Assembly (NCBI GenBank): GCA_964552465.1
Contig: CAZKGR010000014.1
Location: forward strand, 14,970-78,969
Length of the DNA: 64,000 nt
DNA from: an uncultured bacterium
GTDB taxonomy: Bacteria; Electryoneota; Electryoneia; Electryoneales; Electryoneaceae
Direction of reading: 5' to 3'
The translations under genes and the position numbers were made by a program. Of this stretch, positions 28,329 to 46,564 are shown in pieces; position 1 is the first letter of the stretch; the number at the start of each line of letters is the position of its first letter. Below the pieces are notes generated by a model. That model did no database searches and had not been told where the DNA came from. It was given only the letters and a program-made list of their open reading frames with translations.

Positions 28329-28385
28329 GCAGGTTGGTATCATTCACTGAATGACACCCGGTTTGGAACCAAACCGAGCCACCCG
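28325..28385. repeat. about 60-bp repeat containing the palindrome CCGGTTTGGAACCAAACCG, copy 2 (overlaps the stop codon of C10 copy 1)
   Basis: About 90 percent identical to 23959..24019. Confidence 0.5.
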
Positions 28386-28452
28386 CCCGGGGGACATAAC
28401 CATCTGTAGACTCTCTTGATGCGGGATGTAGAGCTTTAGAAGGGATTGAGGC

Positions 28453-29106: not shown

Positions 29107-29135
29107 GAATTCTCTGACTGAAAGACGGTGACTGT

Positions 29136-29423
29136 ATGTCGAGAGGAACAAAGCTCAAACCACTGAAAATGGCGCAATTCCAGGCATTTCTATTCTCACT
29201 CTTGGGTTTGATCGCTGGCATCATCTATTCAATTGGTGGGGTGATAGTTGATCTGTTCACGATTGGTTTGAACTGGGGAACTGCCATGGCATTCATGGCG
29301 TTAGTGGGTATGCCAGTTAGTTTTGCAGCAATCGGATTTATGCTGGGACTTGTTGAGGCTGTGCTTTATAATTTGTTCGCGAAGTGGTTTGGTGGATTTA
29401 AAATGGATCTCTTTAAAGACTAG
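29136..29423 (+). CDS. small hydrophobic membrane protein (95 aa, 2-3 TM)
   Basis: Highly hydrophobic ORF directly downstream of 28453..29106. Confidence 0.35.
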   Translation: MSRGTKLKPLKMAQFQAFLFSLLGLIAGIIYSIGGVIVDLFTIGLNWGTAMAFMALVGMPVSFAAIGFMLGLVEAVLYNLFAKWFGGFKMDLFKD

Positions 29424-29458
29424 GGACTAACGTATTATAGACCTGCTCATCTCATAAA

Positions 29459-29539
29459 GACGAAACGCCTCATCCAGGGAGGGAGAATGAGGCGTTTTGC
29501 ACTGCATATGGTTAACAGGCGGTGAGTGGCAAGTCACCG
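29459..29539. repeat. about 80-bp repeat carrying an intrinsic terminator (AAACGCCTCATCC...GGATGAGGCGTTTT) and a second small hairpin, copy 1
   Basis: Near-identical to 31732..31811. A degenerate third copy lies inside the 3-prime end of C10 copy 1 (about 28235..28260). Confidence 0.55.
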
Positions 29540-29553
29540 TCAGGCAAAGCCTG

Positions 29554-29673
29554 GGGATTTCGGTGCTTGTCCCCAAACGGAGGAAGAATCTGGCCCGCTA
29601 TGGTCGGCGCGCGAAGATCGTCGGCACCCTGGCATCTTGTCAGACCGTCGCGATTACAGGGGTTTTGTCTTGA
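29554..29673 (+). pseudogene. fossil 3-prime fragment of a nupC-like gene (last 39 codons plus stop)
   Basis: Translates in frame as GISVLVPKRRKNLARYGRRAKIVGTLASCQTVAITGVLS*, against the true nupC C-terminus GISVLVPERRATLARYGLRAMIAGALASWQTAAIAGILL*. About 70 percent nucleotide identity; no upstream coding continuation. Confidence 0.6.
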
Positions 29674-29816
29674 TTGACTAATACTCCTTGACTTAGACGC
29701 TCACATTCATGTGAGTATTTCTCTTTTTTTGTTCATTAATACGCTATTTCTTGCGCCAATCTCTTGAATTAGTTAGCTTCTTGTTAGCCGTACAAACATA
29801 GCAGGGAGGGGAAATC

Positions 29817-31730
29817 ATGCGAACCATGATGCTTGTTTGCTGTATTGTGCTGGTAATTTCCACTGCACTGGCTGACACTGTTACTCTTGAGGATGCGACA
29901 ACCGCCGCACAACGATTTGTTGAGTACCGCACCGCGTTGGATTCATGGGATGAAAACACACCGACTGATATTCGTCTTGAAAGAATCATCGAACAGGATG
30001 GAATGCCAATCGCGTACTACTTCGAGGTTGAACCTGCGGGTTGTGCGCTAATCTCGGGTTACCGTGAACTACCCCCGGTCAAGATGTACTCCGAACAGTA
30101 TCGCCTTGAATTTGATCATGCTCAATCCGCCGGGATGATGATCACCCAGGAATTGCAACAGAAGGCGGCGACTCTCGCTCGACATAACGATCTGGCCTCC
30201 ATGTCAGCCGCTGGCATTGACGTATCCGCAGTGCAGGAGTGCTATCAACTCTGGCAGGTGTTCACGCAGCCATCACTAGACTCGTTTATGGAAGAAGCCG
30301 CCAGCCGTGAACTGGACGAATATGTGCCCGGAACCTATCTGGTCGACGCGATCTGGCACGAATTTACGCCTTACAATGCTTACTGTCCTGTTTATGATAA
30401 TGAACACGCCCAGGTCGGTTGTGTGGCGTTGTCGTCAGCTCAGATAATGTACTACTGGCAGTGGCCACCGGCTGGACAATCATCACATCAATACCTGTGG
30501 AATGGGGAATGGATTTCTGCGAATTTCAGCGATCCCTATGATTGGAACAACATCTTGCCAGAATACGGTCAACCGTGGGAACACACAGTGGCCGAGCTGA
30601 ACGCGATCGCGGAATTGTGTTTTGAAGTTGGCGTAGCATATGAAACGATGTACAGCGTATTTGGATCAGGAGCCGATCCAACAGACATTCCGCTCGTTCT
30701 CCCTCAGTATTTCTTCTACCAACTTGGTATTTCAGAAGAATGGAAGATCAATTACCCGGATGATCAAGCCTGGTTCGATGTATTGTGTGCAGAGTTGGAC
30801 TTGGAACGTCCGATGATGTACATCGTCGAAAACGACTTATGGGGGCACGCATTCGTCGTTGATGGTTATCGCGTCGAGTTGAATGTCAATGAGCTCCATA
30901 TCAACTATGGGGGGTGGGAGAATATCTTCCTCGGTTGGTATGCAATTGACTCTATACCCTACTCCGATTGGCCTGATGCTGAAAGAGCATATTTGAATTT
31001 CCAGCCGGATTTCGACGGCTATGATCCAATTCCATTATCTATCAATGTTATTCCAGAAGAACAGCAATACCTGCTTGTTCCCCAAGGTGGGTCCTTCGCT
31101 TACGATGTAACCCTGGAAACAAACATAGATCAACCTCAATTCGGTTGGGTCTGGATTGAACCCATCCTGCCTTCAGGGCAACCGTACGGTCCCATCCAAA
31201 GCTTGCGTATGCTTTTCCTGCCCGGGATGTCGCTTTCTATCTCAAACATAGTGCAGGATGTTCCGCTTGATGCACCGCTTGGCTATTACCAGTACTGGAT
31301 TCATGTGGGATCGACGATGGGTGTTCCTGTATCATCCGACTTTTTCCCGTTCTCTGTTTACGCACCGGAACCAGACAACGTGGCGGGTAATCATGAATGG
31401 GAATCGCACGGCCTCGAACGTCTTGTAGCAGGATCATCCAGCGAACCATCGGGATTGCAGCCACAAGTATGCACCGTCGCCCCGATCTATCCAAATCCAT
31501 TCAACGGTTCGACAACGATTACAATGTCGCTTGCAGAAACGGCTATGGTCCAAATTGATGTTGTGAATACGCTTGGGCAGACAGTGTTGCAAATCACGAA
31601 AGGAGTCCATTCTCATGGGCAACATCGGTTCCAGTTTAATGCCGAGGCGCTGACAAGCGGTGTGTATTTCGTGACTACAAGTGCAGCGGGGCAAAACGTT
31701 AATGTTCAAAAGATCCTTCTACTGCAATAA
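29817..31730 (+). CDS. C10-family (streptopain/PrtT-like) cysteine peptidase with T9SS C-terminal sorting domain
   Basis: Signal peptide; pro-domain; catalytic Cys HAQVGCVALSSAQIMYYWQWP and His WGHAFVVDGYRVE; C-terminal CTD (YPNPFNGSTTI...VYFVTT...KILLLQ). GGGAGGGG RBS. Confidence 0.8.
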   Translation: MRTMMLVCCIVLVISTALADTVTLEDATTAAQRFVEYRTALDSWDENTPTDIRLERIIEQDGMPIAYYFEVEPAGCALISGYRELPPVKMYSEQYRLEFDHAQSAGMMITQELQQKAATLARHNDLASMSAAGIDVSAVQECYQLWQVFTQPSLDSFMEEAASRELDEYVPGTYLVDAIWHEFTPYNAYCPVYDNEHAQVGCVALSSAQIMYYWQWPPAGQSSHQYLWNGEWISANFSDPYDWNNILPEYGQPWEHTVAELNAIAELCFEVGVAYETMYSVFGSGADPTDIPLVLPQYFFYQLGISEEWKINYPDDQAWFDVLCAELDLERPMMYIVENDLWGHAFVVDGYRVELNVNELHINYGGWENIFLGWYAIDSIPYSDWPDAERAYLNFQPDFDGYDPIPLSINVIPEEQQYLLVPQGGSFAYDVTLETNIDQPQFGWVWIEPILPSGQPYGPIQSLRMLFLPGMSLSISNIVQDVPLDAPLGYYQYWIHVGSTMGVPVSSDFFPFSVYAPEPDNVAGNHEWESHGLERLVAGSSSEPSGLQPQVCTVAPIYPNPFNGSTTITMSLAETAMVQIDVVNTLGQTVLQITKGVHSHGQHRFQFNAEALTSGVYFVTTSAAGQNVNVQKILLLQ

Positions 31731-31939: not shown

Positions 31940-32377
31940 TCAATTCTGCATGCCGTTGATCTCGATCTTGCGCGGCTTGGACTCTTCCGGTTTCGGCAAG
32001 CGGATGGTCAGGACGCCGTTATCGAAATTCGCATGGATCGAGTCACTCTTGATCGAGTCGCGAACGTTGAACCGACGCTTGAACTGGCCGGTCATACGTT
32101 CGCTGCGATATACAGTCTCGCCTTCCTTTGATTCCATCGCCGGACGCTCACCGCTCAGGACGAGAACGCCGTCCTCGAGGGTGATTTCGATACTGTCCTT
32201 GGTGACGCCGGGCAGATCCGCGTGAATGCGGAACTCGTGCTCATCCTCAACAATGTCGACTCGTGGACGCCAACGCTGTTCGGGTTGTTCTTCGTTGTTG
32301 CGAACTTCGTTGATCAGGTTCATCCAACGTGTCATCTCAGTTGTCGGGCCGCAATATCTGTGCTGATGCCTGTGCAT
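31940..32377 (-). CDS. Hsp20/alpha-crystallin-family small heat-shock protein
   Basis: Alpha-crystallin domain (RVDIVEDEHEFRIHADLPGVTKDSIEITLEDGVLVLSGER). Start chosen at the ATG at 32377 (AGGAAG 5 nt upstream); 32335 is an alternative start. Confidence 0.8.
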   Translation of the reverse strand: MHRHQHRYCGPTTEMTRWMNLINEVRNNEEQPEQRWRPRVDIVEDEHEFRIHADLPGVTKDSIEITLEDGVLVLSGERPAMESKEGETVYRSERMTGQFKRRFNVRDSIKSDSIHANFDNGVLTIRLPKPEESKPRKIEINGMQN

Positions 32378-32439
32378 GTGTACTTCCTTTCGTGTATTCG
32401 ATTGTTGATGAATGCGTTTTGCATCTCGCCGATCATTAA

Positions 32440-32455
32440 GCAACCGTTGTGCCAG
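32440..32455 (-). promoter_or_regulatory. sigma-54 (-24/-12) promoter candidate CTGGCACAACGGTTGC upstream of hsp20
   Basis: Reverse complement of the plus strand at 32440..32455 reads TGGCAC-N5-TTGC, matching the consensus GG/GC elements and spacing. About 60 nt upstream of the hsp20 start. Confidence 0.5.
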
Positions 32456-32706
32456 AATCTATGGTATCCATGTAACTCGTGATATATAGCCAAATATATG
32501 GATCGCTCGATGCGGAGAGCAATTGGCTTCATCTATAATCTGGCAGTGGCATGTCTGATTGACAGGTGCTGTTCTGCAATTACGGCAGGAGTACTCATTC
32601 AAGGTCTCAGACTTGGGAGAGGGTTGAGCAAAACTGTTGGGAACGCAGTCCATCAGAGCCGCGTGTGTGAGCCGATAGACAACCAACAGTCATTCAGGAG
32701 AACATT

Positions 32707-34170
32707 ATGAGTATGAGGTACTTGCGTTCCAGTGTCGTTGCAGTGTGGGTGCTGATCATTGTTGCTGGATTCATGGCATTCCCGACCACATCGTTCAGCC
32801 AGACAGTGGACTTGCAGGACTCACGATACATCACGTCAACGTTTGAGAGTCCGTTTGTCGCGGTGGCGGAGCAATTGAAGCCGAGCGTGGTATTTATCAG
32901 CGCCATGCGTGAACGTGAAGTTCAGATTCCGAGATTCTTCGAGAACCATCCATTTTTCCGCGATCAGTTCCCTGATCAGGATGGCGAGCCGCGTGTGCAG
33001 CGTATTCCGTCAAGCGGATCAGGATTCATCATTGATGAGGCGGGCTACATCATCACCAACAATCATGTTGTGCAGGGTGCGAGCGAGATCACGGTGACCT
33101 TGTCGGATGGATCTGAAGAGGAAGCAGAGATTGTCGGCACCGATCCTGAGACGGACCTGGCGTTGTTAAAAATAGACGGCGTTGATCCAGATCATGTTGC
33201 CAGGTTGGGAAATAGTGATGACATCCGGATAGGTGACTGGGCAATTGCGATGGGTAATCCGCTCGGGTTGGACTGGACGCTGACAGTTGGCGTGATCAGC
33301 GCCAAGGGCCGCAGCAATCTGAATATCTCCGGTGGTGGACCTATCTTCCAAGATTTCATCCAGACGGACGCTTCGATCAATTTCGGCAACTCTGGCGGTC
33401 CGTTGACAAACATCCAGGGTGAGGTCATAGGCATCAATGCAGCGGTGAACGCATCCGCTGATGGTATTGGATTCGCGATCCCGATCAACCTTGCCAAGGA
33501 TGTTGTCGATCAGTTGCGCGATGGTGGTCGTATTGCACGAGGTTATCTCGGCATGATGCCGGATGCATTAACCGATTTGTATCGCGAGGCGCTGGACATT
33601 GATGAGGATGTGGACGGAGTATTTGTTCAATCAGTGGAATCCAACACTCCAGCATCGGAAGGCGGTCTGCTTGAGTCGGACGTGGTCATCGAAGTCGACG
33701 GTGTGCCTGTGGATAACGTGAACGATTTCCGTTTCCGGATTGCGCGCCACGCACCGGGCGACAGAATGGAGTTGAAGGTCTTGCGTGATGGTCGCGAAAA
33801 GAACTTGGATTTTGTTTTGGGCGATCGCGCGGAATACATGGGCATCGTTGCAGAGCCAGAGCTGGAAGTAAAAGAGGACTGGATGGGTTTGGACGTTGAG
33901 AATTTGAATAGTCCACGGGTACGTCGCAACACGGAGTTGCAGGTGAGTTCCGGGGTTATAGTGGTTGGTGTTGAAGCTGACAGCCCAGCACAGGGTGTAT
34001 TGCGTCCTGGGGATGTGATTGTCCAAGTCGCCCAGCAGCGTGTTGAGACTGTGAATGACTGGCGAAGTGTGACCATGGAGCTGGGGGATACAACGAAGGC
34101 GGTGTTGGTCAAGTATCATCCACAAGGGCAAGCTGCTACGAGGTTCACTGCTCTGAAAGCCAATGGTTAG
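32707..34170 (+). CDS. htrA: HtrA/DegP-family periplasmic serine endoprotease with PDZ domains
   Basis: Signal peptide; trypsin-like catalytic blocks (TNNHVV, DLALLKI, GNSGGPL); two PDZ-like segments. Confidence 0.9.
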   Translation: MSMRYLRSSVVAVWVLIIVAGFMAFPTTSFSQTVDLQDSRYITSTFESPFVAVAEQLKPSVVFISAMREREVQIPRFFENHPFFRDQFPDQDGEPRVQRIPSSGSGFIIDEAGYIITNNHVVQGASEITVTLSDGSEEEAEIVGTDPETDLALLKIDGVDPDHVARLGNSDDIRIGDWAIAMGNPLGLDWTLTVGVISAKGRSNLNISGGGPIFQDFIQTDASINFGNSGGPLTNIQGEVIGINAAVNASADGIGFAIPINLAKDVVDQLRDGGRIARGYLGMMPDALTDLYREALDIDEDVDGVFVQSVESNTPASEGGLLESDVVIEVDGVPVDNVNDFRFRIARHAPGDRMELKVLRDGREKNLDFVLGDRAEYMGIVAEPELEVKEDWMGLDVENLNSPRVRRNTELQVSSGVIVVGVEADSPAQGVLRPGDVIVQVAQQRVETVNDWRSVTMELGDTTKAVLVKYHPQGQAATRFTALKANG

Positions 34171-34377
34171 TTGGTGAGTTGAACAAGCTGACAATTGCAT
34201 GATGATACAACGAAATCGCCGCGGTTATTGAACCCGCGGCGATTTCGCTCTTCCAGAGGGCTCACGAGCAAAATGGGCTTGTGAAGTTGCTAAAATTGAA
34301 CGTTTTCATTGCGCATTGGCTGGTCGGACGGTAAGTTTTGCAATCCCGAGGTTTTACTGGCATAACACGAGGAAAGA

Positions 34378-35382
34378 ATGCCTGATTCTTCCCTTCTTCA
34401 TACCAGCGTGATATCCTCCGAATCACATGATCCCTGGCATAATCTCGCTCTTGAAGAGGCGTTGCTGGAGGATGTGTCACCGAACGGAATCGTGTTGTAT
34501 TTATGGCAGAACGAGAACACGGTTGTCATCGGTCGCAACCAGAACGCCTGGCGTGAATGTCGTTGGAAGGAACTGGAGGAGAGTGGTGGAAAGCTGGCGC
34601 GTCGTTTAAGCGGCGGCGGTGCAGTTTACCATGACCTCGGAAACCTGAACTTCACGTTTGTGATGGACAAGACCCTGGTGGATTTGCACCGTCAGCTCCG
34701 TGTTCTTCTTAATGCGATAAAGGCATTGGGAGTGGAAGCGGAGTTTTCTGGTCGCAATGATATAGTGGCGGACGGTCGAAAGTTCTCGGGAAACGCGTTT
34801 CATGCTCGTGACGGCTCGTATTACCATCACGGGACATTGCTGGTTGATGTTGATTTTGAAAAACTCAGCAATATTCTGACCGTTGATGACGCAAAGATGA
34901 AGGCGAAGGGTGTCACCTCGGTCAAGTCTCGTGTCGTAAACCTCAAGACCTTAAGTGACAGGATTACCGTTGACGCGCTAAAGGTTGAGTTGCGAAAAGC
35001 GTTTCGCGAAGAATACGGTGGTGAGTGCACAGAGTTGAGCCCCGCTGATGTGACAGACGATCTGTCAGCGTTGTACGAAAAATACGCCGCATGGTCTTGG
35101 CGGTATGGACGCACACCCATCTTTGATGTTGAAGTCAGTCGCCGTTTTGATTGGGGGATCGTTGATCTCGGATTCAGTACCGACCAGGGACAGATCGAAT
35201 CATGCACGGTGTATTCGGACGCGATGGACGCTCGTTTGATCCAGGAACTGTCAGCTCGTCTCGAGCAGATACCGTATCGCTTTGAAAGCATTTCAACCAA
35301 GCTCGATGAACTTGCGAACACAGATGAGCGCAAGGCTATGGTAGACGACATGAAGGGCTGGTTGCAGACCGAACAGTTATAG
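34378..35382 (+). CDS. lplA: lipoate-protein ligase A
   Basis: LplA family blocks (RRLSGGGAVYHDLGNLNFTF, lipoyl-AMP binding region). Confidence 0.85.
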   Translation: MPDSSLLHTSVISSESHDPWHNLALEEALLEDVSPNGIVLYLWQNENTVVIGRNQNAWRECRWKELEESGGKLARRLSGGGAVYHDLGNLNFTFVMDKTLVDLHRQLRVLLNAIKALGVEAEFSGRNDIVADGRKFSGNAFHARDGSYYHHGTLLVDVDFEKLSNILTVDDAKMKAKGVTSVKSRVVNLKTLSDRITVDALKVELRKAFREEYGGECTELSPADVTDDLSALYEKYAAWSWRYGRTPIFDVEVSRRFDWGIVDLGFSTDQGQIESCTVYSDAMDARLIQELSARLEQIPYRFESISTKLDELANTDERKAMVDDMKGWLQTEQL

Positions 35383-35441: not shown

Positions 35442-38400
35442 TTGCCACTCGAAACCGTGTCATTTCTACGCTATCATAGGAGCGTCACCTCACAGGCACG
35501 GAAACCAATCATGCTCGAGACACCCAGCAAGCTTGCTGACCGATTGAACGAATGGACGCCATACGCTGAAAAGGATGAATCCAACAGCGAACTTGCAGTC
35601 ATCATTCTTGACGATATAACTGCATTGCTGGCGGAAAAGTCCGAGGCGGATCTTGCTGCACATCACGATTCTTTCCATCAATTCCTTGAACTAACCGGTC
35701 GTCCCACCTACCTGGAATCGTTACCGGATGATGATGCACGTCTGCGGTGGTCTGATGTTGCACTGGAAATTGTGCAGCGAGTGAACTACACACTCGAGGA
35801 CATGCTGAACGCTCGTATCAGCGAGATTCCCGACACAACATATTTCGAAGAGCTGATGGCGGGTGAATCCATCCGCTGGAGCTATGCACAGGTACAAAGA
35901 CGTATTCGAGCGATCGCAGCAGTCTTCTGGCGTGATGCTGGAGAAGACGAACCTCGAATCGCGTTACTCGTTGACAATTCATTGGATGGTGCTTGTTGTG
36001 ATCTGGCATGCCTGCTCCACGACATCCTGATCACACCGCTGAACGTGCATTTTGATTCTGAAGAGCTGGCTTGGATCATCGAACGGTTGCAAATCAATGC
36101 CGTCGTCGTCGATCGGGAGGATCGACTTCGCAGGATGCAGGAGGTTCGGAAACTCACGAAATGCGATTTCCGCATCTATGCGATTCATCTGGAACGCGAC
36201 AGGGTGGAGGGGAAGGCGATTCCACTTGTCGAAGCGTTTTCCCGTTTGTCAGCCGATGATGTGAATGATCAATTGGACGCTCGTCCGCGTTTTGATCTGC
36301 ATGAGATCTGCACGGTGATGTTCACATCCGGAAGTACCGGTCGTCCAAAAGGTGTTTGTTTTTCCCAATTCAATCTAGTCTCAAAACGATTTGCACGTGC
36401 TGCTGCGCTGCCTTCTGTTGGGCGAGATGAAGTGCTGCTGTGTTACTTACCGCTATTTCACACGTTTGGCCGTTATCTCGAAATGCTGGGCATGCTCTAC
36501 TGGCGGGGAAGATACGTGTTCGTCGGAAATCCGTCCACGGAAGCCCTGATTGCCAGCATGAAACGTATTCGTCCCACCGGGTTAATCAGCATTCCGCTCC
36601 GTTGGTTACAGATACGTGACAGGTCGCTCTCAGTGATGGAATCACTGCCGACCAGCGAGGAGAAGCAGGAAGCTTTCAGCGAGATCACAGGTGGGCGGTT
36701 ACGCTGGGGATTGAGTGCGGCTGGTTATCTCGAGCCCAAAGCATTTCGATTCTTCCAGATGCATGGTGTTGCACTGTGTTCCGGTTTTGGGATGACAGAG
36801 GCTACAGGCGGAATCACGATGAGCCCGCCGGGAGATTATGTCGATAACACAGTTGGTCGAGCGCTGCCAGGCATAGAGATCCGGCTATCTGAAAACGGTG
36901 AAATGTTGATCACGGGAGCGTATGTCGCTCGCTATTTGAAGGAGGATGGTGAGGGGCTGGAAGTCGAATCCGGAGATGAGCTGGATGGTGATGATTGGCT
37001 ACACACTGGTGACATTTTCCGTGAGATTAAGCCAGGTCATCTGACCATTGTTGACCGGATCAAAGACATATACAAGAACATTCGCGGGCAAACCGTTGCG
37101 CCGCTGCGTGTGGAACGTAAATTCGCCACAGTTCCGGGGATCAAGCGGACGTTTCTCGTTGGCGATCACCGAGCGTTTAACGTATTGATGATCGTTCCTG
37201 ACCTTGATGATCCAGTGTTGGCGGATGCACCCGACACGGAGAGTCGCCGCGATTATTTCCGTCAAATAGTTACAACAGCCAACCAGGACCTGGCACCTTA
37301 CGAACGTGTCGTCAATTACACTCTGCTCGATCGTGACTTTGACATTGACAAGGAGGAGTTGACGTCTAAGGGCACAATGCGCCGCAAGGTGATCGAGGAG
37401 AATTTTGCCGAGGTTATCTCTTCACTTTATGAAAGTAGCTATGTAGAGCTTGAAGCAGCTGGAATTCAGGTACGAATACCACGCTGGATTTTCCGTGATC
37501 TGGGCATTCTGGAGAGCGACTTCGTCGCAAAGGTCGATGAACCAACATCAGAGCACAATGGCAGTGTATACCTGACAGACAATGAGCATGACCGGACACT
37601 GCCGATTCGCCGTGATACTCGGAACGGATATGTCATTATCGGCGACTTGTCGTACCATATCCTGGGTGATGTCATTGATTTGGGTATGTTTGCTCGCCAA
37701 CCACGATTGTGGGCTGCGAATCCATCTTTGATGAACTTTGTCCCCTGTCGCGAGGGGTGGGATGTCCCGTTCAATAAGCACGTAATGCCTCACGCAGCAC
37801 TTCCCACCAACGACAATGAACGGACACTTGAACTCGTCCAGTCAGTTGAACCGTCGCATCTTTCAGATTCACAATTGCGGGAGTTGAACCGTGATTTGCA
37901 GATCGCCCTTTTTGATACAGTCGAGAATTCGATTCAAGTGTTGGAGAAGCTTAGCGAATCGTTGATCTCGTTCGATGATCGCCTGGGTGGAGTTGCACGC
38001 TTACGTTTGACAGCATTAGCCACGCATCCAGACGAACAGGTCCGCAGCACGGCTTATCGTATTCTGCTTCTTGACGAACCGATGCAGGATTATAGTGTTT
38101 CGTTTCCGGCGTTTGTGCAATCCGGTTTGTCATTCCTCAACGAAGAATCGATCAAGCTCATATCGCGTGAAGGCTTTGAAAAGCGTCGTCTGGCCGCACT
38201 TCGGCAACGCTTGTACTCCTACCGGATTCACCTTGACTGGCCTGCAAAACCTATGGTGCAACGGCAATTCAAGAATGTGTTCCGTTTGCTGATCAATTTT
38301 GTTCGTTTCAATCCGGCGTACTACAAGAGTGTCCGCGCAGAGTTGGCAAGTTGGTTGCTGCATCGAGTTGATCCGCAAATATCACGGTTTGCGGAGATGA

Positions 38401-40220
38401 TGCTGGATCATATGGTATCGTGGTTCGAAGGCCGGCTGGTCGAAAACGCTGTCTCTATTCCTGAATCACTGCTGGAAGAGATGATAGTTTTCGATGAAGA
38501 TCTGGATGAGGAACAGCGAATCACCCTCCAGGACATGTTGCTGTACACGACCTTCCTCAAGCAGTCTGTGATGCTAACGTTCAATGAGGAAGATTTCGAC
38601 ATTGACCAGGTACCGGCGGGCGGGATCTGGGTTTCTCGAACTAAGGCGAGTGGCGATTACAATTTCTATCGTGTCAGCGTGAACACAATCTCTGGCCGTC
38701 ATTTCGATCTGCTCCTGGTTCAACGTGAAGATATGAATGCCCGCGTGGTCATGGACACGAATCATTGGATGATCGCCATTGGTGGACATCCATACGAACA
38801 GCGTACCCTCCCTCGTTTTGGTTGTATCCGTCCTGAGTTGGCAACGATGTCCCTGGAGTATGTGAACGAGCTTACTGCGTGGGAGAAGATCCGTGAATAC
38901 GGTGGTAGTTCGTCTCAGGCTAGTCATGTCGTGCATGAGGCGGATTGGCACCGGTTGCTGGTAACTGGTATGGCAACCTTCTTCCGGGCTTGGAAATATT
39001 CAGGAAAGCGAATTATCCCTGGAGTGATGTCGCCTTCAAACGTGGTTGTTCCCGACTTGGATTTTCGCGAAGAAGCACTAATCCTGTCGTTAAGCGGATG
39101 GGAAGAATACAGCACTCCAATCACGCTGATGCGTCCGTTGTGGTCCAATTTCTTCCGCAAAACGATTTCACTGTACCCGCTAACTGATCGCGTGTTGGAT
39201 GAACGATGGTTGTTCGATGCTGTTATCGAGGGTCTGGGATCAGTGGAAGGGGAAGAATTCCTCAAGGACTTCTCATATGAAATTGAAACAATTGAGAATA
39301 ATCCTTTCTCAGCCAAATTCGTCGAGGACTTGCACGACTACATCGAAAAAATCAGCACGCAATGGTATGTGCCTCAGCCTGTCCGAAACGCAATCCACCG
39401 CTATCACGCGTGGCAAAAGATCAATCCGAACGTCACCAGCCAGGCATGCGCTGAACTGTTGGAAGGATTGACCTCGATGTACCACATGCACCGGTACGGT
39501 GAAATTGCTCGGTACTATCTGTATTCAAGGACGTATTTCGACCTGGCATCAAATGATGTCAAGCGAACGTTCTCGATTCTGTTGGATGAATTGTGGGCGG
39601 AACCGTCCTTACATGCAACTCAACGAGTTGAATTATCTGAGCTTCAGGCGGCTCTGGAATCGCAAGCTGATCGGGATGTGTTCAGCCGGTTGGTGTTCCC
39701 CCGCGCGCATAAACCGCAGACGGTGGAAGTGCTGACCTTTGGCGAACGTGGACGGAAAACTGTGGTCGTACGTACAAACATGGTCGACAACCACGGTGAG
39801 GGTTATGACATCCGCGAACCCATCGAACCGGAAGAGGTTGGGTCGTTGTACAGGCTCTTCTACCAGGAAAGATTTCCCAAGTCGGTCAGCGAACAGGATC
39901 GCCATCTCGTTGTTACGGACGCTACTGACCGCGTGATCGGCGGCTTGACATTCAAGGATCAGGACAAAGAGGTTGTTCACATGGATGGGCTGGTAACATC
40001 CGGCCCGTTGATGGGGAGGGGGATTGCAACTGCCTTACTGGAAGATTTTGTGACCCGTATGGCCAGCCGTGGGGTGAAGGTGCTGAAGACCGATTTCATC
40101 ATGCGTGATTTCTGCGAACGGCGGGGTTTCAACGTGAACAAGAACTGGGGTGGACTGGTGCGGTTCATCTCTCAGGACGAGCCCGAACTCGACCGCGGCG
40201 AACTTCCACCCAAGGAATAG
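35442..40220 (+). CDS. very large multidomain protein: N-terminal AMP-forming acyl-CoA ligase domain, about 850-aa region of unknown function, C-terminal GNAT acetyltransferase domain
   Basis: TSGSTGRPKG AMP-binding motif and adenylation core (about aa 280-700). C-terminal GNAT motif A (LMGRGIATALLEDFV). The true start may be the internal ATG at 35511. Confidence 0.7.
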   Translation: MPLETVSFLRYHRSVTSQARKPIMLETPSKLADRLNEWTPYAEKDESNSELAVIILDDITALLAEKSEADLAAHHDSFHQFLELTGRPTYLESLPDDDARLRWSDVALEIVQRVNYTLEDMLNARISEIPDTTYFEELMAGESIRWSYAQVQRRIRAIAAVFWRDAGEDEPRIALLVDNSLDGACCDLACLLHDILITPLNVHFDSEELAWIIERLQINAVVVDREDRLRRMQEVRKLTKCDFRIYAIHLERDRVEGKAIPLVEAFSRLSADDVNDQLDARPRFDLHEICTVMFTSGSTGRPKGVCFSQFNLVSKRFARAAALPSVGRDEVLLCYLPLFHTFGRYLEMLGMLYWRGRYVFVGNPSTEALIASMKRIRPTGLISIPLRWLQIRDRSLSVMESLPTSEEKQEAFSEITGGRLRWGLSAAGYLEPKAFRFFQMHGVALCSGFGMTEATGGITMSPPGDYVDNTVGRALPGIEIRLSENGEMLITGAYVARYLKEDGEGLEVESGDELDGDDWLHTGDIFREIKPGHLTIVDRIKDIYKNIRGQTVAPLRVERKFATVPGIKRTFLVGDHRAFNVLMIVPDLDDPVLADAPDTESRRDYFRQIVTTANQDLAPYERVVNYTLLDRDFDIDKEELTSKGTMRRKVIEENFAEVISSLYESSYVELEAAGIQVRIPRWIFRDLGILESDFVAKVDEPTSEHNGSVYLTDNEHDRTLPIRRDTRNGYVIIGDLSYHILGDVIDLGMFARQPRLWAANPSLMNFVPCREGWDVPFNKHVMPHAALPTNDNERTLELVQSVEPSHLSDSQLRELNRDLQIALFDTVENSIQVLEKLSESLISFDDRLGGVARLRLTALATHPDEQVRSTAYRILLLDEPMQDYSVSFPAFVQSGLSFLNEESIKLISREGFEKRRLAALRQRLYSYRIHLDWPAKPMVQRQFKNVFRLLINFVRFNPAYYKSVRAELASWLLHRVDPQISRFAEMMLDHMVSWFEGRLVENAVSIPESLLEEMIVFDEDLDEEQRITLQDMLLYTTFLKQSVMLTFNEEDFDIDQVPAGGIWVSRTKASGDYNFYRVSVNTISGRHFDLLLVQREDMNARVVMDTNHWMIAIGGHPYEQRTLPRFGCIRPELATMSLEYVNELTAWEKIREYGGSSSQASHVVHEADWHRLLVTGMATFFRAWKYSGKRIIPGVMSPSNVVVPDLDFREEALILSLSGWEEYSTPITLMRPLWSNFFRKTISLYPLTDRVLDERWLFDAVIEGLGSVEGEEFLKDFSYEIETIENNPFSAKFVEDLHDYIEKISTQWYVPQPVRNAIHRYHAWQKINPNVTSQACAELLEGLTSMYHMHRYGEIARYYLYSRTYFDLASNDVKRTFSILLDELWAEPSLHATQRVELSELQAALESQADRDVFSRLVFPRAHKPQTVEVLTFGERGRKTVVVRTNMVDNHGEGYDIREPIEPEEVGSLYRLFYQERFPKSVSEQDRHLVVTDATDRVIGGLTFKDQDKEVVHMDGLVTSGPLMGRGIATALLEDFVTRMASRGVKVLKTDFIMRDFCERRGFNVNKNWGGLVRFISQDEPELDRGELPPKE

Positions 40221-40414: not shown

Positions 40415-40446
40415 AAACTGCCACGGACATTCGCCCGTGGCAGTTT
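40415..40446. terminator. bidirectional terminator hairpin AAACTGCCACGG...CCGTGGCAGTTT
   Basis: 12-bp perfect stem lying between convergent genes. Confidence 0.55.
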
Positions 40447-40490: not shown

Positions 40491-41942
40491 TTATCTGACC
40501 AGCATCACCTTTTGTACCTGGTCAAGGTATCCTGGAACGGTTGCCCGGACGAAATACAATCCGCTGGACAATCCTGAAGCGTCAAAGACCAAGCTGTGCG
40601 AACCAGCGTTCGCAATTCCCTGGTGCAGAGTAGCTACCTGCTGTCCGTTGACGTTGTACACGGCAACAGTCAGGTCAGCCGCATCGGGAAGCGCAATATC
40701 GACCGTCGTTGATGGGTTGAACGGGTTCGGATACGCAGCGTTCATCGCATACGCATTCGGTAGCTGATTATTTGAACCAGCGCCAGTGATAGTAAAGTCG
40801 CTGTTCGTCCAGTCCGACGGGTCAAACACATAATCGCCGTCTGTCGCGACACCGGTCTTGATAAATGGGAAGCTGTCCTGAACCATCAGACCAGGGTTGT
40901 TCGGAACGCCGACGGTACCGATGAACTCATACTCACCCATTGGTGCACCCGCGGGAACTACCTGAGTCTGGCCGGTAACGCTGACATCCATGAATGCCAT
41001 CATGTTGAATGCAATGTTGGCCAGTGGTCCAACGGTAGATCCATCTGGAAGGGTGACAAAGGTCCGGTAACGGACGCCGTTCGCCTGGAGGAAGGTGTTG
41101 TTGATGAATTGAGCATCGTAGACAACATCGCCACCACCGGCGGGTATGGTCGTATTTGTCGGCGTCAGGATCAGTTGCACGGATTCTGGTTCTGCGCCTA
41201 CAACCGCCATGTTCGATTGGATGACTTCGTGCGTGTTGTCATTCTGCACATACACGACAACCGAGATGTTGTCATCCATGATCAGGTCGCCATTCAGTGT
41301 GATCGGCCAGTCGAACGAGACGTCGAAATTGACAGTTTCGTTAGTGCCGATGGAGAACGGCAGTCCGTCATCATCTGGAGCCATGTCGAGCATGTCATAA
41401 TGCCACTCACTCTGACCGTTCCAACCCGTGAAACCGTTGTAATAATTGTTCATGAGCCCGAAACGGATCTTGTAGTTGCCAGACACAGCAACATCGGCCG
41501 ATGTAACCTGGACCGACATATCGACAGAATTGTCTGAAGCAGATGCGCTACAATCAAGTGCAATCGGACTTTCGATAGCGAGACGGTTATCAACAGCAGT
41601 CTGCAGCAGTTGCGGCGTGATTGGCCAGCGGTCGAGCAGACCGTCCACCATCAATGTGGGGAGTAAGTTAATCGGATAGTAGTCGAACCGACCGGTATGT
41701 TCAGCCCCGTTTATTTCCTGCCAAGGGTCGCCAGCATACCAGTTGGCGTGGAATACAATTATGCTGACATCCTCACCTCCGTTGCCTTCGAAGAAAGTCT
41801 GGATCGTCTGCGCCGCAGACGGACAGGTGCCTCAACCATGACCTGTGAATTCTTCGAACATCACTTTTCGAGGGAATGCGTGGGCTGATGCGGCCAGCAG
41901 GCCAATCACCATTATGCCCAGGGTAAGACGACGTGCAAACAT
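40491..41942 (-). CDS. secreted thioredoxin-fold (Omp28/redoxin-like) protein with T9SS C-terminal sorting domain; in-frame TGA at 41832..41834 read as selenocysteine (UxxC)
   Basis: ATG at 41942 with GGGAGG 6 nt upstream. Signal peptide MFARRLTLGIMVIGLLAASAHA, then FEEFTGHG-[TGA]-GTCP, a U-G-T-C motif at the thioredoxin CxxC position. The hairpin GUCUGCGGCGCAGAC starts exactly 11 nt after the UGA. The frame stays open to a T9SS CTD (AYPNPFNPSTTVDIALP...LYFVRA...KVMLVR). The ORF track split it at the TGA. Confidence 0.55.
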
Positions 41943-42064
41943 CACTGCCTCCCGTGTTTTCGGTGTCTGATCTACATGCAACTTTAGGGTATCTTATAGT
42001 CTAGGGTTGAAATCAGAGACATACAAGCTTCAGGTGTTAGTTTTCAGAGAATATCCAATAAAAA

Positions 42065-42089
42065 CGCCCGGTGGATTTAACCACCGGGC
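42065..42089 (-). terminator. intrinsic terminator GCCCGGTGGATTTAACCACCGGGC followed by a T-run on the minus strand
   Basis: Perfect 9-bp GC stem immediately downstream of the 42120 gene stop. Confidence 0.6.
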
Positions 42090-42119
42090 TTGTAATTCCG
42101 AATACATAAACTCCAATAT

Positions 42120-43562
42120 CTAGCGAACCAGCATCACCTTTTGCATCTGATCCATGTGACCCGGAACTGTTGCACGGACAAAGTACAGGCCGCTGGCTAA
42201 GCCTGAAGCATCAAACGTCAAGTTGTGTAATCCAGCGTTTGCAATTCCCTGGTGCAACGTTGCGACCTGCTGTCCGCTGACGTTGAAGACTGCAACTGTC
42301 AAGTCAGCCGCTTCCGGCAACGCGACCTCAAGCGTTGTGGTCGGGTTGAACGGGTTCGGATACGCAGCATCCATGGCGAATTCGGACGGCAGCGTAATTA
42401 CGGCATCGCTACCTTCACTCGAGGTTTCGAACCAGTTGCTGTTTGGGAACTCAAAATTGCCGCCATCAGGAGCATTACCCAGTTTCAAGAATTGGAAACT
42501 GTCTTCCGCGACCAGGGTCCACGGTGTCGGTCCGGCTTGCGCGACAAATGTGTAAGTTCCAACTGGTGCCATGCCAGGAACTGCTTGAACTACATCAGTA
42601 CGAACAATGTCAACACCTGGAATGTAGGTGATGTTGTAGGTGTTGATCGGGTAGTTATTACCGTTCGGAAGAATCGCGAGCGTGCGCACCTGGCCCGGTG
42701 TTGCCACATCATAGTTGTTGGTGATCAAGGCATCAAAGACCAGGTTTCCGCCGTTGCCGGGAATGTAGATCGGATCATACATCGGCATCAGATCGAGCGT
42801 GATGTCTGGAGGTGTCCAACCAACCGCAGCCATTTCCGACTGGAGGACTTCACGACCACTGTCATTCTGCACATAGGCAATGACTGTGACGTTATCCTCG
42901 GTGATCGGATCACCGTTCAGCGTAATCGGCCAAGGGAACGAGACATCGAAGTTGATCGTTTCGTTGGCATTGATGGAGAATGGTAGACCGTTATGATCCG
43001 GCGCCATATAGAGCATGTCGTAATGCCAAACGCTCTGACCATTCAACCCGGTGAAACCAGAGTATTCGTTCTGCATCAGTCCGAAACGAATCTTGTAGTT
43101 CCCAGACACAGGTACATTTGCTGAGGTGACTTCAACAGACATGTCAACCGCATTGCCGACAATATTTGCCGTGCATTGAATCGCAATCGGGCTGTCTACC
43201 GCGAGGCGCGTGTTCATCGCCGTTGTCAATGTTGCATCACTGATCGGCCACTGGTCAATAACACCATCCACCATCAGCGTAGGTAGAGCCATTATGTTGT
43301 AGTAGCCACAACGACCGTTATGATCAGCGGCGTTCAAGAGTTGCCATGGGTCACCGGCATACCAGTCTTCGTGGAACACGATCATGGTGGTATTGTCAGC
43401 GTTGTTTACATGAAAGTTGTAGATCGTCTGCGCCGCAGACGCGCAGCCACCTCAACCATGACCCGTGAATTCTTCGAAGATCACCTTGCGTGGGAATGCG
43501 TGGGCTGATGCGGCCAGCAGACCGATCATCATGATGCCCAAGGTTAGACGACGTGCAAACAT
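42120..43562 (-). CDS. paralogous secreted thioredoxin-fold T9SS cargo protein; in-frame TGA at 43452..43454 (UxxC = U-G-G-C)
   Basis: ATG at 43562. Near-identical signal peptide; FEEFTGHG-[TGA]-GGCASAAQ. The identical 15-nt hairpin lies 11 nt downstream of the UGA. C-terminal T9SS CTD. About 60 percent aa identity to the 40491 gene elsewhere. Confidence 0.55.
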
Positions 43563-43759
43563 CTCTGCCCCCTTGTCTTTGTTGTCTGATCTACATACAA
43601 CTTTTTGTGTATCGTGTAGTCTAGGAAGGAAAACTTAGGGATTCAAGCCTCGGACACAAAGAAATCAAAAAACTCTTTCGCTCCACTTCCTGATTCCGTT
43701 GCTGAGGTTAAAGCGTGAACGGGGACACTTTGTCCTCAAAGTGTCCCCGGATCATCCAA

Positions 43760-46279
43760 TTATTTCAGTAGTACGGCCTTCTGAATGATCGAGTCTGCTC
43801 CATTTTGAACTCGCACTATGTACACACCGCTCGCGAGCCCAAGCCTACCAGCATCGAACTGCCAGACAGTGCGTCCTGCCTGAGCATGCACGGTTTCAGC
43901 GGCGACCTGCCGTCCGAGGATGTCGTAGACTGCGATCTTGACTGTCGCCGCCTGAGGCAGGTGCAGCGGCATCGTGAATGACGGATTGAACGGGTTCGGT
44001 GTCAAAGCCCCAACGTGAAACTCGCTGGGCAGGATTTCTGCATCAGCGCTGACACTGATTGACGTGATCGGCGTCTCAGCGAATGTCGGTATTTGACCGT
44101 CAACCTGGTTCGCCAACTGCCTGCCGGAACTATCCAGCACGCGCACACGCATTGCATTTCCAGCTGTGAAACCGGGGATATTGTGGTCAGCGTCACCTTC
44201 CCACGCGATCACCACGGCGTCACCCTGCTCAGGACGAACCCGCGCGCTACCGACAACCGTTGCACCATCGAGAATCTCGATGATGTCTGCACCGTTTTCG
44301 AGTAACGCGTCATCCAGCAACACCCGCACCGGCCAGCCAATTCCTGACACCGGTGGGGCGGAGGGCAGGTCGGGAAGTGAGGTGTTCGCTGAATTGTTGC
44401 GACCACGTCCGAGCTGGTTGAATTGGAAACTGACAGGTTCACTAACTCGTACACGGTATGCTTTACCCGGTTCGAGAAGTGGAAGTGTCTGCATGATTCC
44501 CGGCAGCCAGAATCGGCCTTCATCGTCGATGACTGCGATGATCTGATCTTGAATGTCTGCCAGCGCAACAGTCGGATCGAGTGGTTCCTGCAATGTGTAC
44601 GGCATGTAGTTCCACATGCCACTACCCAGACGCAGTGTCAAGTCGGCAGGAAGCTGAGTCCCATACATGTGAATTCTACTTGCGGCAGAACTGTAAACAC
44701 GGTAGCCTTCACGTGGATCGACGATTTGAAGAGTCGGGTTACCTACTGGTCTCCAGAACCGGTCGCGGTCATTCCATGCAATCTGAAATGGTGCTGTCGC
44801 TCCAAACACGTTTTCAGGGTGTGGCCATGCCGGGCGTAGGTTGAACGAGATCAATTGCCAACGATCACCATCGAGATAGACCGTCTGTTCATCTGCATCC
44901 CATCCGGAAAGCGAGGTGAGATTCGCCCCGGGTCCTGTGCCGAAGTAACCATTTCCCATATCATAGGTTGCATCCGCCGGATTCTCTTCTTCGGTAGCTA
45001 TTTGCCACACTCGGAACTGGATTGGATTGTCAGGTATGAAACCTGGCAAGTCGTATTCGGGATCGCCTTCCCAGGCAGTCATAATCAGTGGCCATTCGCC
45101 GGTTACCCGAGCAGCGCCAACACACAGGTTCCGATCAAAGATCCCAATCTCGTCATATGAACTGAGAAGGCCACCTTCGAAGTCTGCTTGTTGGATAACG
45201 ATTGGGTAGGGCTGCCCGGTGGGCTCAACGGGAATGAAATTAAATGTATCAGGCTGAAGTAATGCCTGCATCGCATCTAATATTGTCACTGAATCCGAAT
45301 ACCAAGATGTACAATAAACATAGTTGCTATTTAACGCCGCTACAGTCGATTGAGATGAGTAAAAATTGTTTATCTGATAGTATCCAGAAATCAGATGATT
45401 CTCATGAGAACTTAAATCCATGGTAAACAGAGAATTTGATGTTCTAAAGAATAATGTATTGTTTAGAGTACCGATGGTCCGAATATCGCTTGTGAATTGA
45501 TGTCTACTCATAAGTATCAGATTATCAATATCAGAATAATCTAATAAATTCAGCCTGTAAATATCTGTATTGTCAAAAAAGTCCGTAACAAATACATAAT
45601 TATCATCAACATACACATCCATCATGTAATAGTAATTATTACTATCTTCAGCTTCATAAATCACATTAACGACAGGATTATATGGATTAGTAACGTTAAT
45701 AATTGATAATTCGTAGTTTGTGCATACAAACAAGAATGGATAACTATAGTCTATATCTCTTATCACGCCATTACACTCATTTGTTGCAATCAAGGTTGGT
45801 TCAAGAGGATCATCCCACAAGTATATATAGTAATAAGACCAAGTACTATTAATATCACGTTCATATGCATATAAGTAGGGTGAATCATAAATCATTTTAT
45901 GTCCGCCACCTCCTAAAAAAGATCCAATATGCACAGGACTGCTTGGAACACCAATATCATACACTACAATATCGTTCCATGAATTCTCGTAAACGTACAA
46001 GTAATTATCAACAACAGAAAGGTAATAGCAGGCTATGGGACAGTCTGAAATGGATCCAATCAGAACTGGATCATCAGGATTAGCAGTAGAGAAAAGCTGT
46101 ATTTGATTGCTGTTCCAGGCAATAAGGAGGTCATTCTGAACCTGCACATGGTTCTGTTGCCCTCCCAATTCAAGTGTCCCAATCATATCAATATTCCATG
46201 CTTCTTGTGCTTGAGATGGTTGACTCAAACTCACGAGAATGAGCAAAGCGAAAACACTAATCAGAATGCGGGCTTTCAT
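43760..46279 (-). CDS. large T9SS cargo protein: AT-rich N-terminal LVIVD-like beta-propeller region plus a GC-normal C-terminal half with a duplicated domain and CTD
   Basis: Signal peptide MKARILISVFALLILVSLSQPSQAQ (ATG at 46279, GGGAGAAG RBS). C-terminal CTD (NPFNPSFTMPLHLP...VYIVRV...KAVLLK). Strong compositional break near 45240. Confidence 0.7.
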   Translation of the reverse strand: MKARILISVFALLILVSLSQPSQAQEAWNIDMIGTLELGGQQNHVQVQNDLLIAWNSNQIQLFSTANPDDPVLIGSISDCPIACYYLSVVDNYLYVYENSWNDIVVYDIGVPSSPVHIGSFLGGGGHKMIYDSPYLYAYERDINSTWSYYYIYLWDDPLEPTLIATNECNGVIRDIDYSYPFLFVCTNYELSIINVTNPYNPVVNVIYEAEDSNNYYYMMDVYVDDNYVFVTDFFDNTDIYRLNLLDYSDIDNLILMSRHQFTSDIRTIGTLNNTLFFRTSNSLFTMDLSSHENHLISGYYQINNFYSSQSTVAALNSNYVYCTSWYSDSVTILDAMQALLQPDTFNFIPVEPTGQPYPIVIQQADFEGGLLSSYDEIGIFDRNLCVGAARVTGEWPLIMTAWEGDPEYDLPGFIPDNPIQFRVWQIATEEENPADATYDMGNGYFGTGPGANLTSLSGWDADEQTVYLDGDRWQLISFNLRPAWPHPENVFGATAPFQIAWNDRDRFWRPVGNPTLQIVDPREGYRVYSSAASRIHMYGTQLPADLTLRLGSGMWNYMPYTLQEPLDPTVALADIQDQIIAVIDDEGRFWLPGIMQTLPLLEPGKAYRVRVSEPVSFQFNQLGRGRNNSANTSLPDLPSAPPVSGIGWPVRVLLDDALLENGADIIEILDGATVVGSARVRPEQGDAVVIAWEGDADHNIPGFTAGNAMRVRVLDSSGRQLANQVDGQIPTFAETPITSISVSADAEILPSEFHVGALTPNPFNPSFTMPLHLPQAATVKIAVYDILGRQVAAETVHAQAGRTVWQFDAGRLGLASGVYIVRVQNGADSIIQKAVLLK

Positions 46280-46564
46280 TTTCTTCTCCCTGGATGGTGA
46301 TAATCGAGTGCGCGTGGCCGATCCACAGCTGGTTTTCATGACGATACACTTTAATATCAACTTCGCGTGGTGAAACGTCAAGCGAAATGGGCGGGTTTGT
46401 CAGAAATATTTGGCGATTATGGAGATTGGAAAGGAGAAGCAGTGAGTCGCTAGATATGGTTTGAGCACGAAAACGGGAAGCCCAAAGGCTCCCCGTTTTG
46501 TTCTATCATCCATGCGATGTGCGCGCCGCCGAGCACGCGTCATCGCAAATCAGATTATTGCATC

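Follow-up and report, generated by a model that had tools for sequence, protein, structure and literature searches.

A single-chain fusion of an AMP-forming acid-CoA ligase, a putative pseudokinase module and a GNAT acyltransferase, recurrently near citrate synthase genes

Acylation of AMP-forming synthetases by GNAT enzymes is among the best-studied forms of bacterial metabolic control by protein modification, and to our knowledge such synthetase-GNAT control has so far been met either in separate proteins or in GNATs joined to inactive domains that resemble nucleoside diphosphate (NDP)-forming synthetases. In the published classification of bacterial lysine acetyltransferases the partner of the GNAT domain is such an inactive NDP-forming-synthetase-like domain, a small effector-binding domain, or absent (PMC11254643). 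The catalytic lysine of AMP-forming synthetases is acetylated by the GNATs Pat and AcuA; AcuA binds AcsA in a stable complex, and AcuB is known as a sensor on a polypeptide of its own (PMC4053389, PMC11255334, PMC13121692). Here we analyze a giant gene that joins an AMP-forming ligase, a long middle region and a GNAT domain in one chain; it lies in a 64,000-nucleotide stretch (positions 14,970 to 78,969 of contig CAZKGR010000014.1, assembly GCA_964552465.1) from an uncultured bacterium of the Electryoneaceae, and this whole stretch is referred to as the window. A first-pass annotation, made from the letters alone, had set the fusion apart from Pat-type enzymes, and the contrast holds, since the published classification has neither an AMP-forming ligase partner nor a kinase fold (PMC11254643). 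The literature that we searched on ligase-GNAT fusions, and on citrate synthase with lysine acetyltransferases, does not describe the fusion.

Pat, PatZ and YfiQ (class I, types I and II) resemble the present protein in being large and multidomain and in having their GNAT and their acyl-CoA-synthetase-type domain at opposite ends, and resemble the reading that we prefer below in being tied to the control of acyl-CoA metabolism. Their partner domain, however, is NDP-forming-synthetase-like and inactive, whereas here it is an AMP-forming ANL domain with all catalytic motifs, and, unlike in Pat, a beta/HEAT/pseudokinase module of ~760 amino acids (aa) stands between ligase and GNAT. Pat family membership was rejected because an NDP-forming acyl-CoA synthetase homologous domain is absent: Pfam, run on the whole protein, finds only AMP-binding, AMP-binding_C_3 and GNAT families. 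The AcuA-AcsA (with AcuB) and Pat-Acs pairs share their families with our protein, a GNAT and an AMP-forming synthetase, and AcuA-AcsA is further like it in being a physical complex with an added sensor component (PMC11255334, PMC13121692). Those pairs are separate polypeptides that involve an acetyl-CoA synthetase, whereas here a single chain carries a ligase of long-chain/carboxylic-acid-reductase type; the AcuB-type sensor is a CBS/ACT protein, whereas the putative sensor here has a kinase fold, and self-acylation is hypothetical. The ligase matches FadD15/FadD11/ACSL and the adenylation (A) domains of carboxylic acid reductases in sequence, in AMP-binding_C_3 and in the DxWLHTGD...DRxKD signature, but differs from these enzymes in its ~930-aa C-terminal extension and in being without carrier or reductase domains. 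Drosophila Ebony likewise holds an adenylating domain and a GNAT-fold amide-forming domain in one chain (PMC8072286, PMC10531068). Ebony uses a phosphopantetheinyl carrier, whereas no carrier is detectable here and the GNAT keeps a CoA-binding loop. A bacterial fusion of a GNAT with a kinase fold also exists, AAC(6')-Ie/APH(2'')-Ia, which has the opposite domain order, an active kinase and no ligase.

What is new is thus the ancient ligase-GNAT architecture together with its middle module, the ANL and GNAT catalytic folds being known. A ligase and a GNAT in a single chain would be either a natural 'Rosetta stone' for this regulatory pair or a new way for one protein to turn a free acid into an N-acyl product, and the family adds a ~760-aa module missing from Pfam that includes a putative bacterial pseudokinase after a helical solenoid.

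Domain organization of the giant protein

The protein is a soluble, stand-alone, three-module enzyme. Its parts are listed below; all residue numbers are those of a 1,569-aa protein.

35511..40220, + strand: whole gene, 1,569 aa plus stop; the maximal open reading frame (ORF) begins at TTG 35442
35511..35831, + strand: N-terminal extension of ~105 aa ahead of the ligase core, without a Pfam domain assignment
35832..36926, + strand: large N-terminal subdomain of the ANL ligase (Pfam AMP-binding, aa 108-472)
36996..37079, + strand: fatty-acyl-CoA synthetase (FACS)-type signature and hinge, WLHTGD (496-501) through DRIKDIYKN (515-523)
37080..37436, + strand: C-terminal subdomain of the ANL ligase (AMP-binding_C_3, aa 524-642), with the A10 lysine K620 in ELTSKGTMRRK
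37428..37805, + strand: beta-rich domain, aa ~640-765, with the very conserved motifs RIPRWxxRD and PC(K/R)EGWD
37869..38582, + strand: all-helical HEAT-like solenoid, aa ~787-1024, with an invariant SG (871-872)
38625..39710, + strand: protein-kinase-like fold, aa ~1039-1400 (from the model, Foldseek and residue mapping)
39720..40172, + strand: GNAT acyltransferase domain, aa ~1404-1554 (from Pfam, Foldseek and conservation)

A complete AMP-forming (ANL) ligase spans aa ~105-642, as the first-pass annotation had proposed with mention of the motif TSGSTGRPKG; Pfam scores lie well above the cut-offs for both AMP-binding (aa 108-472, E 2e-51, 175.3 bits against 29.9) and AMP-binding_C_3 (aa 524-642, E 3e-10, 41.1 bits against 20.8). 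The large subdomain has its P-loop at TSGSTGRPKG (272-281), followed by LPLFHTFGR (313-321) and GFGMTEATGG (425-434), and with the C-terminal subdomain and the A10 lysine in place every core motif expected of an ANL enzyme is there. These motifs (P-loop, GFGMTEATGG, TGD, DRxKDIYKN and ExTxK) are at least 90% conserved in both deep clades of the family, and a mixed alignment of 29 main-clade and 21 sister-clade proteins shows nothing else in the protein as conserved as they are. Because of this the domain, as judged from its conserved motifs, is apparently an active AMP-forming acid-CoA ligase and not a degenerate sensor such as the synthetase-like domain of Pat. A specific enzyme name cannot be assigned, because every NCBIfam score falls far below its curated cut-off: no equivalog is reached, the best score is 152.5 bits for PRK06187 against a cut-off of 476, and the remaining sub-cut-off matches are to long-chain-fatty-acid-CoA ligases, FadD11 and carboxylic acid reductase. 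Its nearest relatives in the PDB are the carboxylic acid reductases and 6oz1, whose 643-aa chain is deposited as 'oxidoreductase' and aligns over aa 47-640 with E 2e-27; luciferases and CoA ligases come next.

The C-terminal domain proved to be a GNAT, again as first proposed. Acetyltransf_1 is matched at aa 1451-1540 in the whole protein (E 4e-7, 30.7 bits against a cut-off of 20.7) and with 35.2 bits, against the same cut-off, when the C-terminus is searched alone; the motif A string quoted in the first-pass annotation, LMGRGIATALLEDF, is present at aa 1500-1513. Foldseek matches the domain to YhbS, Gcn5 and RimI (E ~2e-4, template modelling (TM) score to target 0.56-0.67); its best fold matches are the protein acetyltransferases Gcn5, RimI and Ard1. 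The CoA-pyrophosphate loop of motif A reads MGRGIA (1501-1506), which we counted as an instance of (Q/R)xxGx(G/A), the first position being Met and not Q/R; its glycine G1504 has a conservation of at least 90%, and the loop of the sister clade is R(R/K)KG(V/I)(S/A). An acidic beta4 residue (D1492/E) is present in both clades, and R1435, P1440 and E1442 are conserved in an R-x-P...P-x-E segment ahead of helix 1. Since the CoA-pyrophosphate loop, the beta4 acid and this segment are all kept, we expect the GNAT to bind acyl-CoA and to transfer its acyl group. The residues on the acceptor side of the GNAT differ between the clades and are poorly conserved; the basic A10 loop of the ligase is conserved.

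Between the two catalytic domains lies the middle region, aa ~643-1403, which measures ~760 aa and not the ~850 first given for it; that it holds nothing recognizable was confirmed. Pfam returns no consistent match, either on four sub-regions of the query at E<=10 or in 35 family members, NCBIfam returns none for the region, and PDB sequences searched with it by phmmer and by profile are likewise without a match, stray weak matches to HEAT, TetR_C, TFIIS and Fic being all that these searches gave. AlphaFold2 models built on a 55-sequence alignment cover aa 640-1569 (predicted local distance difference test (pLDDT) 87.4, predicted TM score (pTM) 0.83) and aa 780-1405 (pLDDT 90.1, pTM 0.89). The predicted order is a beta-rich domain (~640-765), an all-helical domain (~787-1024), a bilobal domain (~1039-1400) and the GNAT (~1404-1554), and the high pTM of the aa 640-1569 model suggests that the beta-rich domain through the GNAT form one rigid body. 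HEAT-type sequence hints in the helical domain are weak and confined to some members; its invariant SG sits within FPAFxxSGLxFL.

The bilobal domain has a recognizable kinase fold in the model (pLDDT 90), with Foldseek matches to Vps34, mTOR, Eph/FGFR kinases and PRPK (E 6e-6 to 3e-3, TM score to target up to 0.62). Conserved residues were mapped onto the predicted secondary structure and inspected in both clades. The equivalent of the catalytic loop is IIPGVMSPSNVVVPDLDF (1168-1185), with the family pattern (R)I(I/V)PGxxxPxN(V/I)xVPxxD(F/Y). Among the canonical catalytic residues only the Asn, N1177, is kept: the position of the HRD Asp is a variable V1172, that of the DFG Asp is a conserved Ser1193, and beta3 bears H1064/D1066 in place of the ATP-binding Lys, so that the three residues looked for (beta3 Lys, HRD Asp, DFG Asp) are all missing. 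A conserved Glu in helix C was looked for in the mapped alignment and none was found. No Pfam kinase family matches the query sub-regions or the 35 members, and hhalign against genuine Ser/Thr kinases encoded by neighbouring genes gives an insignificant probability of 1%; this alignment, which we used solely as a check of register, pairs 'RIIPGVMSPSNVVV' with 'RRIVHRDVKPENIYI' in the same register as the residue map. Compared with the protein-kinase-like superfamily, then, the domain keeps the catalytic-loop Asn, has replaced the Lys, the HRD Asp and the DFG Asp, and has no significant sequence similarity. We call it a pseudokinase because the modelled kinase fold is without these canonical residues. 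It does keep a universal polar set of its own (R1054, D/E1066, N1177, D1184 and S1193), because of which its cleft may bind a ligand, and we infer that the beta/HEAT/pseudokinase body acts as a scaffold and/or ligand sensor and not as a phosphotransferase.

With Vps34, the class III phosphatidylinositol 3-kinase (PI3K), the protein shares a helical solenoid followed by a bilobal kinase fold (Foldseek E 6e-6 over ~600 columns), but the TM score is just 0.21-0.31 and the root-mean-square deviation ~17 A; against PRPK/Bud32 the TM score is 0.6. On a reading that we think unlikely, the order of beta domain, helical domain and kinase fold in the model mirrors the C2-helical-kinase core of class III PI3K, and a bolder corollary still would be that the middle module is a bacterial relative of the helical-kinase core of PI3K and PI3K-related kinases (PIKK). 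Membership of the PI3K/PI4K family itself was rejected, as PI3_PI4_kinase has no Pfam match in the query or the 35 members and the DRHxxN/DFG motifs are absent; the resemblance lies in the helical-then-kinase order alone.

The frame runs uninterrupted from 35442 to 40220 on the plus strand, 1592 codons counted from the TTG at 35442. The size of 1592 aa first given holds for this maximal ORF; the true start is likely ATG 35511, and the protein then has 1,569 aa, because this ATG is the start used in independent public gene calls of the identical protein, because the consensus of 55 homologues opens at its position ('MxxxxxxLxxxLxxW') and because a promoter-like match falls inside the longer ORF:

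35449-35477, + strand: weak sigma-70-like match just 5' of ATG 35511, by promoter consensus only

The gene has the same base composition as its surroundings. Membrane association was rejected, since the maximum 19-residue Kyte-Doolittle mean over the whole protein is 1.44, a value at which no transmembrane segment is expected.

Family distribution and genomic neighbourhood

More than 120 full-length relatives, 1,497-1,600 aa long and with the same Pfam pattern, came out of a search of 5.8 billion proteins; they share 44-100% identity with the query over 95-100% of its length and, together with the uninterrupted frame, bear out the proposal of a fusion encoded by one ORF. Their database names are generic ('GNAT family N-acetyltransferase', 'AMP-binding protein', 'long-chain acyl-CoA synthetase'). 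In a scan of one genome per GTDB species at least 462 loci were confirmed, and the best 80 of these lie in Calditrichota, Zixibacteria, Eisenbacteria, Krumholzibacteriota, Gemmatimonadota, Acidobacteriota, Ignavibacteria, Kapabacteria, Fibrobacteraceae and some Bacteroidales/Draconibacterium; nearly all are labelled metagenome-assembled genomes or uncultured isolates. The family thus ranges over the FCB (Fibrobacteres-Chlorobi-Bacteroidetes) superphylum, Acidobacteriota and Gemmatimonadota, with Marinimicrobia also represented. The first-pass annotation had allowed that the architecture might prove to be a common annotated family with known function: common it is, with at least 460 species genomes, but its names are generic and its function is not known.

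Most of the best 80 loci have one ORF of ~1,530-1,570 aa, and this, with the full-coverage homologues, rules out a frameshift or fusion artefact. Split-gene or fission variants were rejected as well, since the shorter database entries carry the ligase-domain tail and are contig-edge fragments. The middle region alone (aa 640-1405) finds 278 proteins at E<=1e-3 in an exhaustive HMMER search of 1.84 billion cluster representatives, and in every full-length match it sits at ~aa 620-1,450 of a ~1,500-1,700-aa protein. The weakest matches form a sister clade (Marinimicrobia, Ignavibacteriales and others) that is only 21-26% identical in the middle region and still has AMP-binding, AMP-binding_C_3 and GNAT. 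Because the region sits alike in all full-length HMMER matches and the divergent clade keeps the architecture, the fusion is ancient: its three parts have not come apart since a deep split, and these matches show the middle module in no other context.

The gene neighbourhood adds a recurrent association with citrate synthase. A citrate synthase gene lies within 8 kb of a giant-gene homologue in 13 loci (L019, L024, L032, L036, L048, L057, L066, L076, L085, L087, L088, L089 and L092) of at least eight lineages, counted by <60% identity between the target proteins, and both deep clades are among them; in the sister clade it is nearby in four of the six loci with usable flanks. This amounts to ~14% of loci, against ~0.4% by chance on a rough estimate for a single-copy gene, +/-8 kb and a 4-Mb genome. 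The orientation varies (immediately upstream on the same strand in L088, divergent in L089, convergent in L087 and L092), and the genes encode three non-orthologous types of citrate synthase: PRK09569/'eukaryotic-type', TIGR01800 type II and PRK14032. In a Pfam scan of 144 ORFs from 48 lineages, taken from one locus per lineage, Citrate_synt is the top family among the +/-1 and +/-2 neighbours after the ubiquitous histidine kinases. These recurrent, non-orthologous neighbours provide a concrete starting hypothesis for a family carried mostly by uncultured phyla in at least 460 species.

No universal partner was found by BLAST clustering of the neighbours across ~80 loci, and no biosynthetic or transport partner is conserved among them. 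Apart from citrate synthase, the only recurring neighbours are ubiquitous histidine kinases and response regulators; UbiD, SNF transporter, Fur, PrsW, Pkinase-RCC1 and short-chain dehydrogenase/reductase (SDR) epimerase genes are lineage-specific. The Fur-family regulator divergently adjoins the giant gene in Zixibacteria loci (L006:7337-7780 and related), with feoAB, and another Fur-family gene lies near it in a Marinimicrobia locus (L087:16272-16658). In L092, a locus of the distant clade, the giant gene overlaps by 4 bp a 324-aa ORF (5609-6583, + strand) that has no Pfam or NCBIfam match; farther downstream, to 9240, come citrate synthase, a CBS-pair protein and a short LplA-B_cat protein. 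In the window, ~9 kb downstream of the giant gene, a universal stress protein gene stands with a CitMHS_2 'putative citrate transport' gene (48693-50791, - strand); the arrangement is identical in an 83%-identical relative (L004), and its link to the citrate synthase theme may be chance.

Immediately upstream, the window has the following gene:

34378-35382, + strand: lplA, lipoate-protein ligase A (LplA-B_cat, E 3.5e-63)

It closes a block (31940-35382) of HSP20 (- strand), HtrA-type protease and lplA that stays upstream of the giant gene in relatives with identities as low as ~44-50% (L004, L005, L007, L009, L010 and L020). Beyond the window's clade, for example in Zixibacteria, the lplA neighbourhood is absent, bar the short LplA-B_cat gene in L092. 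The adjacency to lplA to which the first-pass annotation drew attention is therefore real but weak as an argument, being confined to the window's clade plus L092.

Possible functions of the fusion

The first-pass annotation had offered two ideas, acyl transfer in cis and a self-contained acylation regulator, and our results do not single out either. We tentatively favour a function as an acyl-CoA synthetase at the acetyl-CoA/tricarboxylic acid (TCA) node, with the fused GNAT acylating a lysine of a protein, in the simplest case K620 of the ligase itself. The ANL domain, of long-chain-acyl-CoA-synthetase/carboxylic-acid-reductase A-domain type, would adenylate a carboxylic acid, and the ligase would then turn about its DR hinge and make the acyl-CoA. 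The rigid beta/HEAT/pseudokinase body would tie ligase to GNAT as a scaffold or sensor, and the GNAT would bind the acyl-CoA and acylate an amine, on this reading a protein lysine, for which K620 is the simplest candidate. Feedback of the Pat/AcuA type within one polypeptide would thereby throttle acyl-CoA supply at the acetyl-CoA/citrate synthase node. Such self-acylation would fit the combination of no product-pathway partner, a citrate synthase link and a clade-specific acceptor side of the GNAT; the divergent acceptor side and the conserved basic A10 loop fit an internal, co-evolving acceptor, if only weakly.

Several points weigh against this reading. The A10 loop reads TPKG and so differs from PX4GK, the typical context of Pat substrates. 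The ligase resembles long-chain and carboxylic-acid-reductase types and not acetyl-CoA synthetase, which makes the link to acetyl-CoA indirect. Citrate synthase is absent from the 64-kb window itself, and no sirtuin/HDAC deacylase turned up among the neighbours. Finally, a fused inhibitor at 1:1 is an unusual design, and fused enzymes more often run consecutive steps, which on this point favours a coupled synthase. We consider it unlikely that the preferred reading extends to a whole class of central-metabolism regulator-enzymes in FCB-superphylum bacteria, in which an active synthetase and a protein acyltransferase would be wired together through a ligand-sensing pseudokinase to control TCA carbon entry at citrate synthase.

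The coupled synthase would be a synthetase-transferase in which the acyl-CoA made by the ligase is used at once by the GNAT to N-acylate a separate small-molecule acceptor; the acceptor, an amino acid, amine or amino-lipid, would bind in the kinase-like cleft and CoA would be recycled, for a net reaction of acid + ATP + amine -> amide + AMP + pyrophosphate (PPi). We regard this as the main rival, only slightly less likely than the preferred reading. Ligase and GNAT both appear intact, fusion of the three modules is obligate across a deep divergence, the cleft keeps its universal R1054, D/E1066, N1177, D1184 and S1193, and single loci have amino-acid genes as neighbours (glutamate dehydrogenase, saccharopine dehydrogenase, arginase-family). 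GNATs also perform condensations in adenylation-domain enzymes, Ebony being an example (PMC8072286). A conserved partner for a product pathway or for export was not found among the neighbours, however, the poor conservation of the GNAT acceptor side between clades is unexpected for one universal small acceptor, and the citrate synthase link is left unexplained. That link would be accommodated if the protein instead acylated citrate synthase or other central enzymes in trans, as a Pat-like acyltransferase and a new type of large multidomain lysine acyltransferase, the ligase making or sensing the donor and the pseudokinase binding an effector. Class I type I lysine acetyltransferases have a parallel layout, a large N-terminal synthetase-type domain and then a GNAT at the C-terminus, the best fold matches of the GNAT are the protein acetyltransferases Gcn5, RimI and Ard1, and lysine acetylation alters the activity of E. 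coli citrate synthase (PMC11254643). Those fold matches may simply mirror the composition of the PDB, however, and no part of the present protein is more conserved than the ligase, with its full set of catalytic motifs, unlike Pat, in which the synthetase-like domain is inactive; we think action in trans improbable.

Two further proposals concern the middle region, where we have put a scaffold or sensor. Were its kinase-like domain an atypical active kinase or nucleotidyl-transferase working with non-canonical residues, the protein would have three activities. The supported kinase fold, the conservation of N1177, D1184 and the beta2 Arg R1054, and a glycine-rich 'GxxHGK(S/T)V' beta1-beta2 loop in the sister clade speak for this, but with a variable residue (V1172) for the HRD Asp, a Ser for the DFG Asp and an acidic residue for the beta3 Lys, with few polar residues shared between the clades, and with no Pfam kinase match and an hhalign probability of 1%, it seems to us very unlikely. 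Least probable of all, to the point of being barely credible, is an enzyme like non-ribosomal peptide synthetases (NRPS) or carboxylic acid reductases that holds its acyl group on a phosphopantetheinyl carrier hidden in the helical region, at Ser871. The closest solved relatives of the ligase are indeed carboxylic acid reductase A-domains, which load a carrier, the SG of FPAFxxSGLxFL is invariant, and the A-T-GNAT-like enzyme Ebony offers a precedent; yet PP-binding is unmatched in the query sub-regions (E<=10) and in 35 members (E<=1), the motif reads SG and not GxDS, the modelled Ser871 ends a short helix inside the solenoid, the fold matches include no carrier-protein structures, and the GNAT retains its CoA-pyrophosphate loop. 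With no carrier domain found, membership of the NRPS-like/carboxylic acid reductase (A-T-X) group was rejected. A role in a defence system was rejected too, PADLOC giving 0 families at E<=0.01.

Other features of the window

Downstream, the giant gene faces genes for secreted proteins with type IX secretion system (T9SS) tails, and one signal lies in the intervening gap:

40415..40446, + strand: hairpin with a perfect 12-bp stem, between the giant gene and a convergent Omp28-like gene

The hairpin may be a bidirectional terminator, though its T-tract is poor. T9SS-tailed (Por_Secre_tail) proteins are dense at 24144-31730 and 40491-46381 and include an FG-GAP repeat protein, two C10-family cysteine peptidases, two Omp28-like paralogues and an 873-aa protein; this set points to an organism of the FCB group. 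Five tRNA genes (Val-GAC, Leu-TAA, Cys-GCA, Gly-GCC and Ala-GGC; 47820-48592, - strand) adjoin infC-rpmI-rplT, and the G+C fraction is 0.586 over 62001-64000 as against ~0.50-0.53 elsewhere in the window.

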